A DNA stretch of 64,000 bases from Bacteroidales bacterium (lineage in GTDB: Bacteria; Bacteroidota; Bacteroidia; Bacteroidales; UBA932). The number at the start of each line of letters is the position of its first letter. Positions within the stretch are counted from its first letter, which is position 1. The notes below the pieces were generated by a model. That model was not told where the DNA came from. It saw only the letters and a program-made list of their open reading frames with translations, and did no database searches. The stretch lies in the NCBI GenBank assembly GCA_017476575.1, contig JAFUZO010000038.1, positions 2,551 through 66,550 of the forward strand, in the 5' to 3' direction. The position numbers and the translations under genes are program-made. Shown one piece after another: positions 4,538 to 13,000 of the stretch.

Positions 4538-6733
4538 ATGAAACTGATAACCGGAATCTCCCTCGCAACCCTTGCGGCCCTGTCCCTGGCGTCCTGCCGC
4601 CGGGAAGAGGCCCCGGTGCCGGATGGGGCCGGTTCCATCCGGGCCGTCATCCTGGATACCAAGGTCCACATCGAGGACGGCCGCAAATGCCGTTGGGATG
4701 TCGGGGACGCCATCAGCCTCTCGCCGCAGTCGGCCGTCCGCGTCGACAAGCCGGGCTGCACGCTGACGACCTCCGACTCGGGAACGCATGCCGTCTTCAC
4801 CGGATCCGTGCCGGAAGGGCTCAGCACCTGGTGCGCCGCCTATCCGGCCGCCGCGGTGACGTGCTGGAATCCCAAGTCCAACGACTCCGACAAGGGCCGG
4901 TGCCGGTTCCTGACCACCATCAAATCGACCCAGACCGTGAAGCGGATGTTCCTCCAGGACGGTCTCGGCGTGTATATCGACCCGGACGTCCTCTGGCTCG
5001 GCGGGTGGTCCAACGACAAGGACAACATCCCCTTCCAACCCCTGGGGACCTATCTCCGTTTCGTCGTCCCGCCCACGGCCCGGTACAGCCTCCGGAGCAT
5101 CTCGGTCTCGGCCGACGGCGCGAAGGTGGCCGGGGCGACCTGGTTCTCCTACAGCGGCGGGAAATGGGGCGAGGAGTTCCAGGGGACGCTCCCTTCTGCC
5201 ACGCTGGTCCGGGGGGAGGGCCTGCCCCTCGCTCCGGGCATCTACTACCTGGCCATCCACAAGAGCACCCAATACACAAGGCTGGATTTCGTCTTCACCG
5301 ACACGGCCGGCCAGACCGCCGGAGCGTCGGTGACGTCCTCGCAGGGAGGTTTCCCCCTGGAGATGGGGAAGATCTATGACGTCGGCACCTTGCCCGACAC
5401 CCTGTTCGGTACGGAAGCCGACCCCCCATCCGGGGACGGCGAGGGTGTGGAGACCTATGTCTATGCCCCTTCCATCGCGCATTCCACCACGTTCGCCGTC
5501 TCCGTGGAAGGCCGGGAACAGACGGTGTTCACCACCTCGGAACCGGACATCTGCGCCTTCGGCTGTCCACAGACCGTGACCGTCGAGATCTCCTTTCCCG
5601 GACGGACTGTGACGCGCGTCGACGTGCGCCCCAAGTCCCTGGACTTCTCCGAGACCTGGGACGGCACCCGCCTGACGCTCCGGATGGCGCCGAAGGACCG
5701 GGTGGTCGTGGAATGTGACGGCGACACCGGCAAACCGCTGTTCCTGTTCGCCAATCCGGTCCAGGAGAAGCCGGCAGACAACGACGACGACGTAATCGTA
5801 TTCAAGGCGGGCACCGTGTCCGATGTCGGCACGCTGGACCTTTCCTCCGGCCGCAACGTCTACATCGAAGGCGGGGCCTGGGTGACCGGCTACATCCGGG
5901 CAACCTCGGCGCAGGACATCGCCATCCGCGGCTGCGGCGTCTTCGACAGCCGGGAGACCGCCGGGGTCCCGATGCGGATCACCTCCTGCGGCAACGTGAG
6001 CCTGTCCGGTATCATCACCCTCAACCGGATTGCGCATACGACCCATTTCCAGGAATGCAGCGGCATCGATATCGACAACTACAAGGTGGTCGCCGAATAC
6101 AACACCACCTCCGGGGTGAACGGACATGAAAACGATGCCCTGAACATCCTCAGTTCGCACACGGCCTCGGTCCGGCACTGCTTCTCCTATTGCCACGACG
6201 ACGCCTTCTGCCTCAAGTCCATCGCGGGGTCCCCCGCCTACGACATCCATTACGAAGACTGCATCGCATGGAACGTACACGGCGGCAATGCCTTCGAAAT
6301 CGGCTACGAGGTCAGCAGCGACATCTACGATGTGTCATACAAGGACATCCGTTCCATCCACAGGCGGGGCAACACCAACCTCCTGCGCAGCGCCGACATC
6401 GGCATCCACAACGGAGGCTCCGCTACGGTTTCCGATGTCAGCTACGAGAATGTATACCTGGAAGAGCCTACGGACAAATATGCCCTCATGTTCCTGATTT
6501 TCGACCGCAACCAGGATGTTGACGCCTACGTGCCTGGGCATATCCGCAACGTCCAGGTCCGCAACCTGCATATCCTGGGAGAGCAGCCCTACGGCTCCCG
6601 CATCCACGGCTATGACGACAGCCACCGGATAGGGCAAGTCCAGATCGACGGAATGTATGTACTGGGGGCGCAGGTGAATACCTGCGAGGACGGAGCTGTC
6701 TCCGTCCAATATGCAGACGTAACCATCAAATGA
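4538..6733 (+). CDS. Lipoprotein: N-terminal fimbrillin/type V pilin-like domain fused to a right-handed beta-helix glycosidase (GH28/GH49-like)
   Basis: Lipobox LASC. Residues ~20-285 carry DTKV, WDVGDAISL and GKIYDVGTLP motifs shared with the 8299 and 9187 proteins. The C-terminal part has PLFLFANP, VYIEGGAWV, ENDALN and CHDDAFCLK beta-helix motifs. Confidence 0.75.
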   Translation: MKLITGISLATLAALSLASCRREEAPVPDGAGSIRAVILDTKVHIEDGRKCRWDVGDAISLSPQSAVRVDKPGCTLTTSDSGTHAVFTGSVPEGLSTWCAAYPAAAVTCWNPKSNDSDKGRCRFLTTIKSTQTVKRMFLQDGLGVYIDPDVLWLGGWSNDKDNIPFQPLGTYLRFVVPPTARYSLRSISVSADGAKVAGATWFSYSGGKWGEEFQGTLPSATLVRGEGLPLAPGIYYLAIHKSTQYTRLDFVFTDTAGQTAGASVTSSQGGFPLEMGKIYDVGTLPDTLFGTEADPPSGDGEGVETYVYAPSIAHSTTFAVSVEGREQTVFTTSEPDICAFGCPQTVTVEISFPGRTVTRVDVRPKSLDFSETWDGTRLTLRMAPKDRVVVECDGDTGKPLFLFANPVQEKPADNDDDVIVFKAGTVSDVGTLDLSSGRNVYIEGGAWVTGYIRATSAQDIAIRGCGVFDSRETAGVPMRITSCGNVSLSGIITLNRIAHTTHFQECSGIDIDNYKVVAEYNTTSGVNGHENDALNILSSHTASVRHCFSYCHDDAFCLKSIAGSPAYDIHYEDCIAWNVHGGNAFEIGYEVSSDIYDVSYKDIRSIHRRGNTNLLRSADIGIHNGGSATVSDVSYENVYLEEPTDKYALMFLIFDRNQDVDAYVPGHIRNVQVRNLHILGEQPYGSRIHGYDDSHRIGQVQIDGMYVLGAQVNTCEDGAVSVQYADVTIK

Positions 6734-6743
6734 GCAACATGTC

Positions 6744-8108
6744 ATGAGAACCCGATATCATCTTGTCTTCCCGGCTGCACTCCTGCTGCTGCCCGCCTCG
6801 CTCCCGGCCCGGGTCGAGACCTACCGGTATGCTGACGTCGTGCCGCGCTCGGAACGGTTCGAAGTGAAGGTCGACGGCGAAGTGCAGACCGTCTTCACGA
6901 CCGAAGAGCCCGACGTGTGCTGCTTCGGTTGCGACGGCCCGGTGACGGTCCAGGTGCGGCTCCAGGGAGCCCCGGCAGACTCGGTCGCCGTGCGTCCCCT
7001 CTCCATCGATTTCTCCCAGGCTTGGGACGGACAGACCCTGACGCTCACCCTTTCACCGAAGGACAGGGCCGTGGTGGAGTTCGACGGCGATACGGCCCGG
7101 CCCCTGTTCCTTTTCGCCAACGCCATCGACCCCTGCAAACCTTCTCCGAAAGACAAGGACGTGGTGTATTACAAGGCTGGTTCCCTGTGCAACGCCAGGA
7201 ACCTGAACCTGGAACCGGGGCAGACGCTGTACCTGGAAGGCGGGGCCTGGTTGATGGGCAACCTCCGCCTCGAAGGCTCGCGGCAGGTCCGGGTGAAGGG
7301 CGCCGGCATCCTGGACGCGCGCGGCACCGACGGCGTTGCGTTCCGGATCACGGACTGCGACGGCGTGGACGTGGAAGGCATCACCCTGCTCAACAGCGCC
7401 GGCCATACGACGCGCATCTACGGCAGCCGGAACCTGCACATCGACAACTACAAGGTGGTGGCGACCCGCAATCCTAGGCAGCGCAAAGGCCTTGAGAACG
7501 ACGCCCTCAACCTGATCAGTTCCAGCCATGCCGAAGTGCGCCGCTGCTTCACCTACTGCCACGACGACACCTATTGCATCAAGACGACAGAGGACGGCCC
7601 GGCCGAGGATATCCACTACGAGGACTGCATCAGCTGGAACAACATGGGCGGCAATTCTTTCGAGATCGGCTACGAGACGACCGGCGACATCCGGAACGTG
7701 ACCTACAGGCGCATGTACGCCATCCACAAGCGGGACAACCCGACCCTCGTGCGGAGTGCCGATATCGGCATCCACCATGCCTCCTGCGGGACCATCGAGG
7801 ACATCACCTACGAGGATATCTACCTGGAGGAGACGGACAACTGGACCCTTGCGCTGATGATGTTCCAGAACCCGTACAGCAAGAAGGCGTATGCAGTGAA
7901 CTGGGTACCCGGCCATATCCGCAACATCCTCTTCCGCGACATCCACGTCCTGTACCCGATGGAGAAAGGCTCCCGCATCGAGGGCGCCGACGAAGACCAC
8001 CGCATCGAAAACCTGGTCATCGACGGACTCTACGTACAGGGCAAGCGGATGCACTCCTGTGAAGAGGCCGGCATCCGGACCGCCCATGCGGAAGTAATCT
8101 TCCAATAA
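6744..8108 (+). CDS. Secreted right-handed beta-helix glycosidase (GH28/GH49-like), paralog of the C-terminal part of 4538..6733
   Basis: Cleavable signal peptide with no lipobox. Shares VFTT.EPD.C.FGC, PKDR.VVE.DGDT..PLFLFAN, ENDALN, CHDD..C.K, GGN.FEIGYE and ADIGIH with the upstream gene. Confidence 0.8.
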   Translation: MRTRYHLVFPAALLLLPASLPARVETYRYADVVPRSERFEVKVDGEVQTVFTTEEPDVCCFGCDGPVTVQVRLQGAPADSVAVRPLSIDFSQAWDGQTLTLTLSPKDRAVVEFDGDTARPLFLFANAIDPCKPSPKDKDVVYYKAGSLCNARNLNLEPGQTLYLEGGAWLMGNLRLEGSRQVRVKGAGILDARGTDGVAFRITDCDGVDVEGITLLNSAGHTTRIYGSRNLHIDNYKVVATRNPRQRKGLENDALNLISSSHAEVRRCFTYCHDDTYCIKTTEDGPAEDIHYEDCISWNNMGGNSFEIGYETTGDIRNVTYRRMYAIHKRDNPTLVRSADIGIHHASCGTIEDITYEDIYLEETDNWTLALMMFQNPYSKKAYAVNWVPGHIRNILFRDIHVLYPMEKGSRIEGADEDHRIENLVIDGLYVQGKRMHSCEEAGIRTAHAEVIFQ

Positions 8109-8134: not shown

Positions 8135-8296
8135 ATGGAAAAACAAACTTTGAAACCACAAGCGGCATACGCCAGCCCGGATTGCCGGTTGATTGCCTTG
8201 CTGGGGACATCCGAAATCCTCAACGCCTCCACTCCCAGCCCCTCCGCAGACATCCAGGACTTCGAGGAGGATGATTCAACCCTGAAAATCTTCTGA
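8135..8296 (+). CDS. Small 53-aa peptide (YxxP...ILxxS type), missed by the ORF track
   Basis: ATG at 8135 follows an A-rich leader. Sequence: MEKQTLKPQAAYASPDCRLIALLGTSEILNASTPSPSADIQDFEEDDSTLKIF*. It fills the gap and stops 2 nt before the next ATG. Confidence 0.7.
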   Translation: MEKQTLKPQAAYASPDCRLIALLGTSEILNASTPSPSADIQDFEEDDSTLKIF

Positions 8297-8298
8297 CC

Positions 8299-9183
8299 AT
8301 GAAAAAGATACTCATCCCCGCCATCGCCATGCTGGCGCTGACCGGCTGCCAGAAGGCCGAACCCGCCAAGGAACCCGCCGCGGAAGGGCTTGACACCATC
8401 ACCGCCACCATCGACGACCAGACCAAGGCCCACCTCGAAGGGCTCAAGGGTTACTGGGATGCGAACGACCAGATTACCCTGTCTCCCCAAAGTGCAACGG
8501 AAGCCGCAGGCGCCATCTTCACGACGGAAGCCGGCGGTGCATCCGCCACCTTCACCGGCACCTTCCCAGAGACACTCACCAACGGAAAATACTGCGCCTT
8601 CTATCCGGTCAGTGCGCTCAGAACAGGCAAATGGAATCCGGGCAATAGCAGCCAGGCTTCCTCTCTGAACAAGATTGCCGCAGACCTTCCGTCCACCCAG
8701 TCGCCTTCCGAAATAACGACTGGTGTCTATATGGACCCCAAGACTTTCTGGCTCGGGGGATACTCGACCGATCCGACATCCATCAAGTTCACTCCGCTGC
8801 TATCTTATCTGAAATTTGTCGTTCCAGAAAGCACCGACTATAAGTTGAAAAAAGTGAAAATAGAAAGCACCGTTGCCCTGGCCGGAACAATCAACGTCTT
8901 GTGTAAAAGCGTATCAGGTGTAATGACTTGGTCCAATGAAACCACCTCGAGCACAAAGAGCACCATGCTGCAGGGGACGGAAGCAAACAGCAAAGTCCTG
9001 GTTGCCGGCACCTATTATCTGGCTTTCCGTCCTGTCGCTACAGCCAGCGATGTCACCATCACATTTACCAATACGAGCGAAAATACCCTTTACTCAAAGA
9101 AAGTTACGTCCATCACGACAAAGGCTGGAACCATTTATGACCTCGGTACACTTCCGACAAAAAAGGAAGATTTTCCTAACTGA
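8299..9183 (+). CDS. Fimbrillin/type V pilin-like lipoprotein
   Basis: Lipobox LTGC, QTKA, WDANDQITLSP, YLKFVVP, GTYYLA and terminal GTIYDLGTLP. Visibly more A/T-ending codons than its neighbours. Confidence 0.65.
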   Translation: MKKILIPAIAMLALTGCQKAEPAKEPAAEGLDTITATIDDQTKAHLEGLKGYWDANDQITLSPQSATEAAGAIFTTEAGGASATFTGTFPETLTNGKYCAFYPVSALRTGKWNPGNSSQASSLNKIAADLPSTQSPSEITTGVYMDPKTFWLGGYSTDPTSIKFTPLLSYLKFVVPESTDYKLKKVKIESTVALAGTINVLCKSVSGVMTWSNETTSSTKSTMLQGTEANSKVLVAGTYYLAFRPVATASDVTITFTNTSENTLYSKKVTSITTKAGTIYDLGTLPTKKEDFPN

Positions 9184-9186
9184 ACC

Positions 9187-10065
9187 ATGCGCAGCGTCGC
9201 TTTCATGACCGCCTTCCTGTGTATCGGCCTGGGTGCCGGTGCACAGGAAGGGGCGTTCACGGCCGTCATCGACCCGTCGTGCCCCCTGGCCGCCGAAGGC
9301 CTCAAGACCGGCTGGGCCCCCGACGACGCCGTGAGCGTGTCGCCCCTGTCCGGGGACCGGGAAGCCCCCGGCCTCGAAGCCCGTACCGAAGAAGGCGGGA
9401 CGGCCGCCCGGTTCGAAGGAGACCTGCCCCTGGCCGCCAAGGCCGTCTGTGCCGTGTACCCCGCCGGCGCCGTCCTGTCGTGGAACCCTTCCGGCAAGGA
9501 GACCGGCACGCTGCAGTTCCAGACCGTCATCAAGCCCCGCCAGCGCGTCGTCCGCCTGGCCGTGAAAGACGGCATCGCCCGCTATGCCGACCCCGAAGTG
9601 CTGTGGCTCGCGGCCCGGCCCTCCCGGAAAGCCCCCGCCCGGTTCCGCCAGGTCGGCACCTACCTCCGGTTCACGGTCCCCGCAGGGGCATCCTACCGGC
9701 TCCGGAAAGTCGTCATCAAGGGAACCCGCTCCACCGCCGCGGACGAGCCCGCCCCCACCATCGCCGGCAAGGTGAACTACAATCTCCGGGATGCGGAGGT
9801 CCGCGAAGGCTTCAAGGGGTCGTCCCGCCAGGTCGACGTGTCCGACGCCTTCGGACAGACCCTCCAGCCGGGCACGTATTATGTGGCCATCCGCCCGCGG
9901 TACAGCGACGACGATGCCAAGAACTACCCCGGCTTCAGCCTGCTCCTGACCGACGCAGACGGCCGGACCTGCCCCTGGGTCCCGGTCCAGAAGGCCTGGC
10001 CCGTCCTGGAACCAGGCGCCCTCTACGACCTCGGCACCCTGCCGGGAGAACTTGACTTTGAATAA
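9187..10065 (+). CDS. Fimbrillin-like secreted protein (paralog without a lipobox)
   Basis: SPI-type signal (LGAGA-Q), WAPDDAVSVSP, YLRFTVP, GTYYVA and terminal GALYDLGTLP. Confidence 0.6.
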   Translation: MRSVAFMTAFLCIGLGAGAQEGAFTAVIDPSCPLAAEGLKTGWAPDDAVSVSPLSGDREAPGLEARTEEGGTAARFEGDLPLAAKAVCAVYPAGAVLSWNPSGKETGTLQFQTVIKPRQRVVRLAVKDGIARYADPEVLWLAARPSRKAPARFRQVGTYLRFTVPAGASYRLRKVVIKGTRSTAADEPAPTIAGKVNYNLRDAEVREGFKGSSRQVDVSDAFGQTLQPGTYYVAIRPRYSDDDAKNYPGFSLLLTDADGRTCPWVPVQKAWPVLEPGALYDLGTLPGELDFE

Positions 10066-10075
10066 AATTCGTGAG

Positions 10076-13000
10076 ATGAACAAACATTGGATGCGTTATT
10101 TCGTAGTCGTCCTGGCCGCCCTCCTGCTGGCCCAGGCCGTGTCCGCGCAGCAGGTGACCGGCGTGGTCACCGACGACACCGGCGCCGCCGTGGCCGGAGC
10201 GGTCATCCGCTACAAGGGGCTGGACAAGCCCTACACGACGAGCGACGCCCAAGGCCGTTTCGCCATCGAGGCCCGGCCGGGCAAGACCCTCGTCATCAGT
10301 TGTTACGGCCTGTTGGACTATGAGGTCGCCCCGGGCAAGGGCGCGGTCCTGGACATCCGCATGACCCCGGACGCCGAGGAAATCCGCGACGCCGTGGTCA
10401 TCGGATACGGCACCCAGTCCCGCAAGGAACTCACCGGTTCCATCGCCTCCGTGAAGCCCGACGAAATCAAGCGGACAGCCTCGTCCAACCTGTTCGGCGC
10501 CCTCGAAGGCCGTGTGGCCGGCCTGAGCATCGGTTCGCAGTCCGGCGAGCCGGGGTCCGGCTACCAGATCCGCGTGCGGGGCAGCAACTCCGTCAACGCC
10601 TCCAACTCCCCGCTCATCGTCGTGGACGGCATCCAGATGGACATCGACGCCGAGAGCAGCACGGGATCGGAGTTCGACAACACCGGCACCGACCCGCTCG
10701 CCTTCCTCAACCCCAACGACATCGCCTCCATCGAAGTGCTCAAGGATGCGTCCGCCGTGGCCATCTACGGGGCCCGCGGCTCCAACGGCGTCATCCTCAT
10801 CACCACCAAGAGCGGCCTGTCCGCCGGCGGCAAGACCATCGTCACCCTCGACGCCTCCCTGAACCTGGCCTCGGTCCAGAAGCGCATCGACATGCTCGAC
10901 GGGCAGGAATGGGTCGACTACCGCTTCTGGCGGCGCGACTACGGCGGTTTCGAGGACTATGGCCGGGACACCGACGGCGACGGGGTGAACGACGCCCCGA
11001 TCGACGTGACCGGCGAGACCTGGCATAACTGGTAGGACGAAATCTACCGCACGGCGCCCACCCGGAGTTACAACCTCACGGTCCGCGGCAACATCGGCAA
11101 AGGGACCAAGGTCCTGGCCGGCGGCGGCTACACCGACCAGCAGGGCCTCATCATCGGCAACTCTTACAAACGGTATTCCGCCCGGGTCAAGGTGGACCAT
11201 CCGGTAAACGCCCGGCTCCAGGTCGGGGCCATGGCCCATTATTCCCGCAATGTCGGTGACGGGGCGATGACCTCCACGGGCGGCGGCTCCGGCTTCACCA
11301 CCGACGGCATCGTGCAGCTCGCCTACCGGGAACGCCCGATCCCGCGCATCACCGAACACGACGAGTCGTTCTACACCCTGGGCTACACGACCCTCAAGGA
11401 GTTCATCACGAAGGAGACCACGCGGAACACCCTCGCCCAGCGCGTGACGGGCAACGTCTACGCCGACTGGAAGATCGTCCCCGACCTGACCTTCCGGGCG
11501 CAGGCCAGCGGAACGGTGAGCGACGCCAACCTCAAGGAGTTCTTCACCAGCAAGAGCCGCTGGGGTTTCCAGAAGCAGGGAGTCCTCAACCTGCGGTACC
11601 AGAACACGGCCTCCTACGTGGCGACGGCCACCCTGCGGTACAAGCACAGCTGGAACCACCGCCACAACTTCGAAGCACTCGCGGGTGCCGAACTCAGCGA
11701 CTACATCTTCGACGCGGTCAAGATGTCCGCCTACAATTTCGACGACGAATCCTCAGGATTCTACAATATTGCCAAGGGCGGCGTGCAGAAGGCGCCGGAG
11801 CAGAACTATTACACCTACAGCAAGATGTCCGCGTTCGGGCGGGTCAACTACAACTACCGCTCGCGCTACTACCTGACCCTCAACTGCCGGGCCGACGCCT
11901 CGTCCCGGTTCAGCGAAGGGTCGCGGACCGGCTGGTTCCCCTCGCTCTCCGTCGGCTGGAAGCCCAGCAAGGAGCCTTTCCTCAAGCGGCAGAAATGGTT
12001 GGGGAACCTGATGCTGCGTGGCTCTGTGGGCGCCTCGGGGAACGACCGGATCACAATGTATTCCAACCTGGCCCAGATGGATGTCAACTACTATTCCCAG
12101 GGAGGCCAGGAGATCCTGGGTGTGAGTTCGGTCAGTTCGGGCAATCCGCATCTCAAATGGGAGACCACCTGGCAATATGATCTCGGCCTCGACTTCGAGG
12201 CATGGAAGGGGCGGGTGAGCCTGACGGCGGACGTCTACTACAAAGACACCCGCAACATGCTCTACCAGTCGACCCTGTCATCCCAGAGCGGATTTGCCCG
12301 GATGTGGGACAATATCGGCCGGGTGGAGAACAAGGGTATCGAGATCTCTCTCTCCACGAAGAACATCGTCCACGGAGATTTCGTCTGGGCGACCGACATC
12401 ACGTTCGACCTCAACCGGAACAAGGTGCGGGACATCGGCGAGAACCTTCCGTTCCGCGAGGTGGGCATCGCTGGCCGGATGACTGACAACATCACCCGGC
12501 TCATCGTGGGAGAGCCCATCGGCGTGATGTACGGCTATGTCGCCGACGGCGTGTACCAGTTCGACGACTTCGTCATCATGAAGGGCGACCGGGAAGTGAC
12601 CGACTATGGTGAGATCACCTCGCTCAACTATAACGACTACAGCTACACCCTCAAGGACGACGTGGTGCACATCGCCAACGTGACCACCAAGCCCGGCGAC
12701 CGCAAGTACAAGGACCTGGATGGCGACAACTCCGTCACCTCCGAGGACCGGACCGTCATCGGGCGGCCGTACCCCCTGTTCTCGGCGGGACTGGCCAATT
12801 CCTTCTCCTTCAAAGGCTTCGAACTGTACGTATTCCTGCAAGGGTCCTTCGGCAACGACATCTTCAACGAATTCAGGGCCATCACCGAGCCGGGCGCCAA
12901 CCTCGGGGTGTACCGCACGAACGTGACCCGGGAGTCCTTCTACGGAGCCTGGTCCCCCGAGAACCAGAGCAACAGCTTCGCCCGTCTGGTCAACCCGACC

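Follow-up and report, generated by a model that had tools for sequence, protein, structure and literature searches.

The analysed window comprises 64,000 nucleotides of a Bacteroidales bacterium genome (GCA_017476575.1, contig JAFUZO010000038.1, positions 2,551 to 66,550 of the forward strand), and the feature under study lies in a tightly packed polysaccharide utilisation locus (PUL) operon that follows a hybrid two-component regulator. The operon consists of a lipoprotein with a pilin-like N-terminal domain fused to a GH28-like beta-helix (4538-6733, +), a second GH28-like gene (6744-8108, +), a micro-ORF of 53 codons (8135-8296, +), two paralogous pilin-like lipoproteins (8299-9183, +, and 9187-10065, +, the latter without a micro-ORF of its own), and susC and susD, with gaps between the genes of 10, 26, 2, 3, and -14 nt. 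The spacer between the GH28-like gene and the micro-ORF is 26 nt long and A-rich (CGAAAATCATCTTAAAAACACTTATC) and seems too short to hold a promoter, so that the micro-ORF is probably co-transcribed with the PUL genes. The micro-ORF encodes MEKQTLKPQAAYASPDCRLIALLGTSEILNASTPSPSADIQDFEEDDSTLKIF, its TGA stop codon is located at 8294-8296, and after the dinucleotide CC the lipoprotein gene starts with an ATG at 8299. As read from the sequence, the N-terminus of the peptide is hydrophilic and Lys-rich without a signal-peptide h-region, and the reading of a secreted protein with a signal peptide was rejected. The observation in the initial annotation, i.e., a 53-aa peptide with a YxxP motif ending 2 nt before a pilin-like lipoprotein gene, was thus confirmed.

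Conspecific metagenome contigs (loci L155–L158) were compared with the window, and the gene callers of four metagenome assemblies had called the identical 53-aa gene in the same PUL. Between these strains the flanks and the micro-ORF are 100% identical in DNA, which precluded Ka/Ks estimates, and the GH28 genes are 99.5–99.8% identical in protein, while the distal two-thirds of the lipoprotein gene (window 8600-9170, residues from about 100 onward) drop to 42–70% DNA identity (67.6% protein identity overall). This looks like an allelic cassette or a recombination hot spot, and an invariant peptide next to a lipoprotein that differs by 32% argues against tight pairwise co-evolution. The in-frame stop that splits susC in the window (11033-11035) is absent from the conspecific contigs, where one SusC of 1060 aa is called (L155: 5792 onward), and the window copy is either a strain-specific pseudogene or an assembly or sequencing error.

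Homologues of the peptide, whose absence had been named beforehand as grounds for rejection, were reached by profiles only. A word-indexed search with the single sequence returned the peptide itself, and phmmer against 1.84 billion predicted proteins (representatives) returned the peptide itself plus spurious eukaryotic repeat proteins. Six-frame searches of related genomes gave weak hits, which on inspection shared one pattern. A profile of six sequences then matched 103 of 151 genomes of the genus in six-frame search, many of them with several copies, and the open frames clustered at 43–75 aa. In the 2.6-Mb genome of the window, a 31-member profile found at least 16 paralogues of 38–56 aa with the same motif. 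As the profile was built from one genus and is insensitive to distant clades, these distribution figures are lower bounds. None of 44 members matched any Pfam or NCBIfam model. A chance ORF was therefore rejected.

To determine the motif, 59 members were anchored on the Tyr (position 0), which is kept in 58 of 59, followed by P at position 3 (59 of 59), hydrophobic residues alternating with Glu at positions 5 (hydrophobic in 85%), 7, 8, and 10, E at position 13, a hydrophobic residue at position 16 (98%), C or L at position 17, S, G, or A at position 19 (54 of 59), and S at position 20 (47%). The resulting head is Y-x-x-P, h-E-h-h-E-h, E-G, h, [C/L]-x-[S/G/A] (consensus Y-x-x-P-E-C-E-V-I-E-L-x-x-E-G-x-h-[C/L]-x-[S/G/A]-S), and the variable tail has a mean net charge of -4.4 with an aromatic residue within the last three positions in 48 of 59. 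The window peptide fits without gaps (Y12, P15, I28-L29, A31, S32). Its predicted leader (residues 1–31, 8135-8227) consists of the Lys-rich N-terminus, Y12-A-S-P15 (8168-8179) followed by D and the hydrophobic C17 at P+2, the strand D-C-R-L-I-A-L-L, and I28-L29-N30-A31, and its predicted core or tail (residues 32–53, 8228-8293) is STPSPSADIQDFEEDDSTLKIF, which is acidic and ends in an aromatic residue. The layout is that of a leader peptide bound by a lasso-type RRE. At locus L044 (G070:C13, minus strand), the leader motif (…KAYESPLSELIYILPEGVICNASG…) forms the N-terminus of a repeat-rich open frame of at least 538 aa that lacks a lipobox and runs off the locus, suggesting that the leader can be attached to a large protein.

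All 16 paralogues in this genome are followed on the same strand by a lipoprotein gene, of which 15 start within -17 to +21 nt and one starts 126 nt downstream, and in other Bacteroidales 27 of 29 family members are followed by a lipoprotein. The claim of the initial annotation that such micro-ORFs recur ahead of fimbrillin-like genes in gut and rumen Bacteroidales without an assigned function was thereby supported. The partner lipoproteins of this genome share an N-terminal domain of about 270 aa, whereas their C-termini vary between DUF285/BspA-type LRR, an endonuclease/exonuclease/phosphatase domain, beta-helix regions, and a GH28-like domain (e.g., contigs C19:~21050, C80:~28080, and C59:~56180), a pattern that suggests a common stalk displaying varied cargo. 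Pfam searches of the partners gave only these C-terminal domains and one Mfa_like_1 hit below the cut-off (E 0.0038), and the products of 8299 and 9187 had no Pfam hit to the fimbrillin models (PF13149, PF06321, PF08842). A fold search was hence used. The 294-aa product of 8299 carries a lipoprotein signal with a lipobox Cys (...LTGC; MKKILIPAIAMLALTGC; LPAM_1), and its AlphaFold2 model (pLDDT 81.7, pTM 0.79) matched in Foldseek the Bacteroides “putative cell adhesion proteins” 3UFI (E 9.8e-9), 3T2L, 5CAG, 4H40, and 3PAY (TM 0.40–0.48), with a weak profile hit to 3T2L also by sequence. These entries belong to the type V pilin (FimA/Mfa) superfamily with its two-domain beta-sandwich fold. A domain profile hit the products of 9187-10065 (E 1.8e-63) and 4538-6733 (E 2.8e-74). 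Of 32 proteins carrying this domain in the genome, 31 have a lipobox and 17 are headed by a micro-ORF, and several of the rest directly follow another pilin-like gene. In the paralogue alignment, the first strand is followed by a conserved T-[K/R]. Type V pili of Bacteroidales are built from lipoprotein pilins by protease-triggered strand exchange, with Arg/Lys-specific removal of the N-terminal strand. No small peptide component is known in Fim or Mfa operons, nor was any found in a literature search on type V pili, and many of the partners described here carry C-terminal enzyme or repeat domains and sit inside PULs.

The initial annotation proposed that the peptide is a donor strand or chaperone for the pilin groove, or a regulatory leader peptide. 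The former, in which the unprocessed peptide would act independently of RiPP enzymes, is compatible with the adjacency, with the tails ending in short hydrophobic or aromatic segments, and with the type V hallmarks of the lipoproteins. However, nothing in this analysis shows such a role, and it is considered unlikely, as a peptide without a signal peptide cannot meet a periplasmic or surface lipoprotein without an exporter, the most conserved part is the YxxP head and not the tail, one copy (L144, see below) is followed by a kinase gene and no lipoprotein, and the peptide is unchanged where two-thirds of the lipoprotein is swapped. The latter, in which translation of the micro-ORF would mainly load ribosomes onto, or gate translation of, the lipoprotein gene while the peptide itself would have no function, is supported by the short gaps and by an SD-like GGAGG/AGGA 6–16 nt before the lipoprotein ATG in seven of 16 pairs (e.g., on contigs C19, C59, C79, and C78), often right after the stop (TAG-GAGG, TAA-GGAGG), against 10.7% of 450 other lipobox ORFs (p 7e-4). 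This is unusual, as Bacteroidota normally lack SD-led initiation. The window pair itself lacks such an element, the amino-acid motif is conserved across paralogues with diverged DNA, the peptide co-occurs with the RRE and is a member of the enzyme operon (see below), and the copy at L144 has no lipoprotein after it, so that a purely regulatory role fits poorly and is likewise deemed unlikely. In SecM-secA and TnaC-tnaA type control a tiny ORF also abuts the start of the regulated gene, but the conserved feature here is an RRE-type motif and not an arrest motif, and the family is tied to modifying and export enzymes.

The initial annotation noted the similarity of YxxP to lasso leaders but set it aside because no RiPP enzymes lie nearby. 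This holds true within the window, yet the genome encodes a matching gene set elsewhere. Contig C45:172-3692 (the window is on contig C10) carries one operon of an S26 peptidase (172-651; Peptidase_S26 23.2 bits against a cut-off of 22.9, with the YSM and MHR motifs), a PqqD-type RRE (686-949; 52 bits; best solved relative the lasso RRE TfuB1), an NTP transferase (NTP_transf_5, PF14907; 123.7 bits), and an ABC exporter (ABC_membrane plus ABC_tran), henceforth called S, B, N, and D. The operon lies next to pdxA, wza- and wzc-like genes, a capsule phosphatase, and rmlD/C/B (C45:1-12000). A scan with the HprK model PF07475 gave only a false hit inside a SusC-like gene, whereas tblastn with cluster-encoded kinases (K) of other genera identified a homologue standing alone at contig C20:7364-8455 (E 1e-52), the model of which folds like PEPCK and HprK/P.

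This gene set corresponds to the pathway of linear polyphosphorylated peptides (LPPs) described for Bacillota, i.e., lppA-K-B-S-D-N of Paenibacillus alginolyticus DSM5050 (Popov et al., Nat Commun 2026;17:6633, PMC13381572). There, the precursor LppA has an N-terminal YxxP leader and a variable C-terminus, the discrete RRE LppB binds the leader and presents it to the SpI-like peptidase LppS, the HprK-like kinase LppK polyphosphorylates Ser3 of the core, and LppN (NTP transferase) and LppD (MsbA-like ABC exporter) complete the cluster, which lacks a lasso cyclase and often sits in capsule loci. The full LPP leader consensus YxxPxVLxHQxIxFETxxS is not matched by the family, as only the YxxP-h part and the overall layout agree. 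In addition, precursors are dispersed in many copies away from the enzymes, each is coupled to a pilin-like lipoprotein gene, the kinase is unlinked in this genome, and N is optional within the genus. Phosphorylated or glycosylated lasso peptide clusters (paeninodin, pseudomycoidin; A, B1 (PqqD), B2, C, D, K, N) share a [Y/W]xxP leader bound by a discrete RRE, the HprK-like kinase, NTP transferase, and ABC exporter. A classic lasso peptide was rejected, however, as no macrolactam synthetase (C) or cysteine protease (B2) lies next to the RRE. The leader peptidase is S26-type, and the product is presumably linear. Since the reference set (S, B, N, D, K) cannot recognise C or B2, the ORFs on C45 were read directly, where the operon holds only S, B, N, and D; in 80 related loci the recognised genes abut one another, leaving little room for further genes.

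These 80 loci were retrieved from named genomes using the N protein as query. The closest loci derive from uncultured rumen and gut Bacteroidales MAGs (RUG and RGIG series), i.e., the group of the window itself, and show S-B-N-D with no peptide nearby. In other genera, family members lie directly in or against the cluster. In Parabacteroides sp. (L144), the peptide overlaps the start of K by 7 nt, followed by S-B-N-D; in Dysgonomonas termitidis (L109), Proteiniphilum (L114, L120, L122, L135), and a Bacteroides MAG (L113), the order is peptide, lipoprotein, then K-S-B-N-D; and in L115 and L132 the peptide-lipoprotein pair directly follows N. This amounts to about 11 of 38 such loci, with p 1e-4 to 1e-10 for assumed (not measured) densities of one copy per 50–200 kb. 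The lipoprotein in the L109 cluster is homologous to the pilin-like domain of the window (hhalign 95%, E 1.9e-8). Cluster architecture varies by clade (e.g., L148, L150, L152, and L154 of the same genus, and L093–L106 of Muribaculaceae and others) between S-B-N-D with a separate K (this genome), K-S-B-D or S-B-D without N, N-K-S-B-D, and K-S-B-N-D, with RRE, peptidase, and exporter as the constant core. Across 251 genomes sampled over the order, 10 of 11 peptide-positive genomes have the RRE against 16 of 240 others (odds ratio 140, p 2.4e-10; counted by genus, p 1.4e-6, without further phylogenetic correction). Within the genus, peptide presence correlates only weakly with N (odds ratio 1.3–2.5) because N is dispensable; 14 of 16 peptide-rich genomes lacking N keep the RRE in K-S-B-D or S-B-D clusters.

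Taken together, the interpretation of the initial annotation is supported in part, and the micro-ORF is best explained, with moderate confidence, as a dispersed precursor peptide (LppA-like) of a Bacteroidales version of the LPP-type RiPP pathway, processed by enzymes encoded elsewhere. The family, its motif, the pairing with lipoproteins, the enzyme set in this genome, the linkage on the same DNA in other genera, and the co-occurrence with the RRE are established by the present data. Every step of maturation, in contrast, is inferred by analogy with Paenibacillus and from sequence alone, in the absence of biochemical or expression evidence: the RRE would bind the YxxP strand and present the leader to the S26 peptidase, a Ser or Thr near the new N-terminus would be phosphorylated and possibly further decorated, and the 22-residue acidic core would be exported by the ABC pump. 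As [C/L]17-x-[S/G/A]19 fits the -3/-1 rule of type I signal peptidases, cleavage is predicted after A31; if the spacing instead follows LPP (three residues before the conserved Ser), the cut would be after I28. The position homologous to the phospho-Ser is uncertain, as position 19 is often G or A and some cluster-linked cores contain no Ser. Against this explanation also stand the lack of linkage between precursor and enzymes in this genome, with the kinase separate from S-B-N-D, and the leader differences beyond YxxP. In this view, at least 16 precursors in this genome would each be co-transcribed with, and probably translationally coupled to, a type V pilin-like surface lipoprotein, here inside a PUL operon, and the mature peptide is inferred to act together with that lipoprotein, although the RiPP model does not explain the pairing. 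Peptide similarity tracks that of the lipoprotein N-domains only weakly in a Mantel test (r 0.15–0.20), so that any interaction would involve conserved features, or there may be none. An exported modified peptide with a function of its own (a signal, an antagonist, or a capsule- or biofilm-related factor), next to lipoprotein genes merely through shared regulation or modular duplication, would agree with this weak co-variation, with the machinery and exporter present, and with the neighbouring capsule genes. It is nonetheless regarded as improbable, as a pairing with a lipoprotein that holds in 16 of 16 and 27 of 29 cases across distant genera, with near-zero spacing, is hard to explain without a functional tie.

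The LPP study describes LPPs and paeninodins as restricted to Bacillota and mentions neither Bacteroidota nor lipoproteins, and a RiPP-mining study of Bacteroidales (PMC10352776) and a rumen lasso survey (PMC7533575) do not describe this system. Genome annotation misses a whole class of genes in gut and rumen Bacteroidales, and the family appears to extend LPP-type modified peptides to another phylum, with a new architecture in which many dispersed precursors share one enzyme set. A more speculative and rather doubtful possibility, which would be of high interest if true, is that this maturation line (RRE, S26 leader peptidase, kinase and/or NTP transferase, ABC exporter) supplies processed acidic peptides that become physical partners of the type V pilin-like lipoproteins as a donor strand, a cap, an anchor, or a covalent tag. 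Peptide modification would then be a so far unknown step in assembling or anchoring the surface proteins of PULs in Bacteroidales and might link them to the capsule machinery next to which the enzyme operon sits. The pairing of precursors with pilin-like surface lipoproteins, often inside a PUL, makes a link between peptide modification and the surface display of glycan-degrading proteins directly testable in cultivable relatives with the linked operon (Dysgonomonas, Proteiniphilum, Parabacteroides, Bacteroides), and this association offers a lead to the biological role of LPPs.
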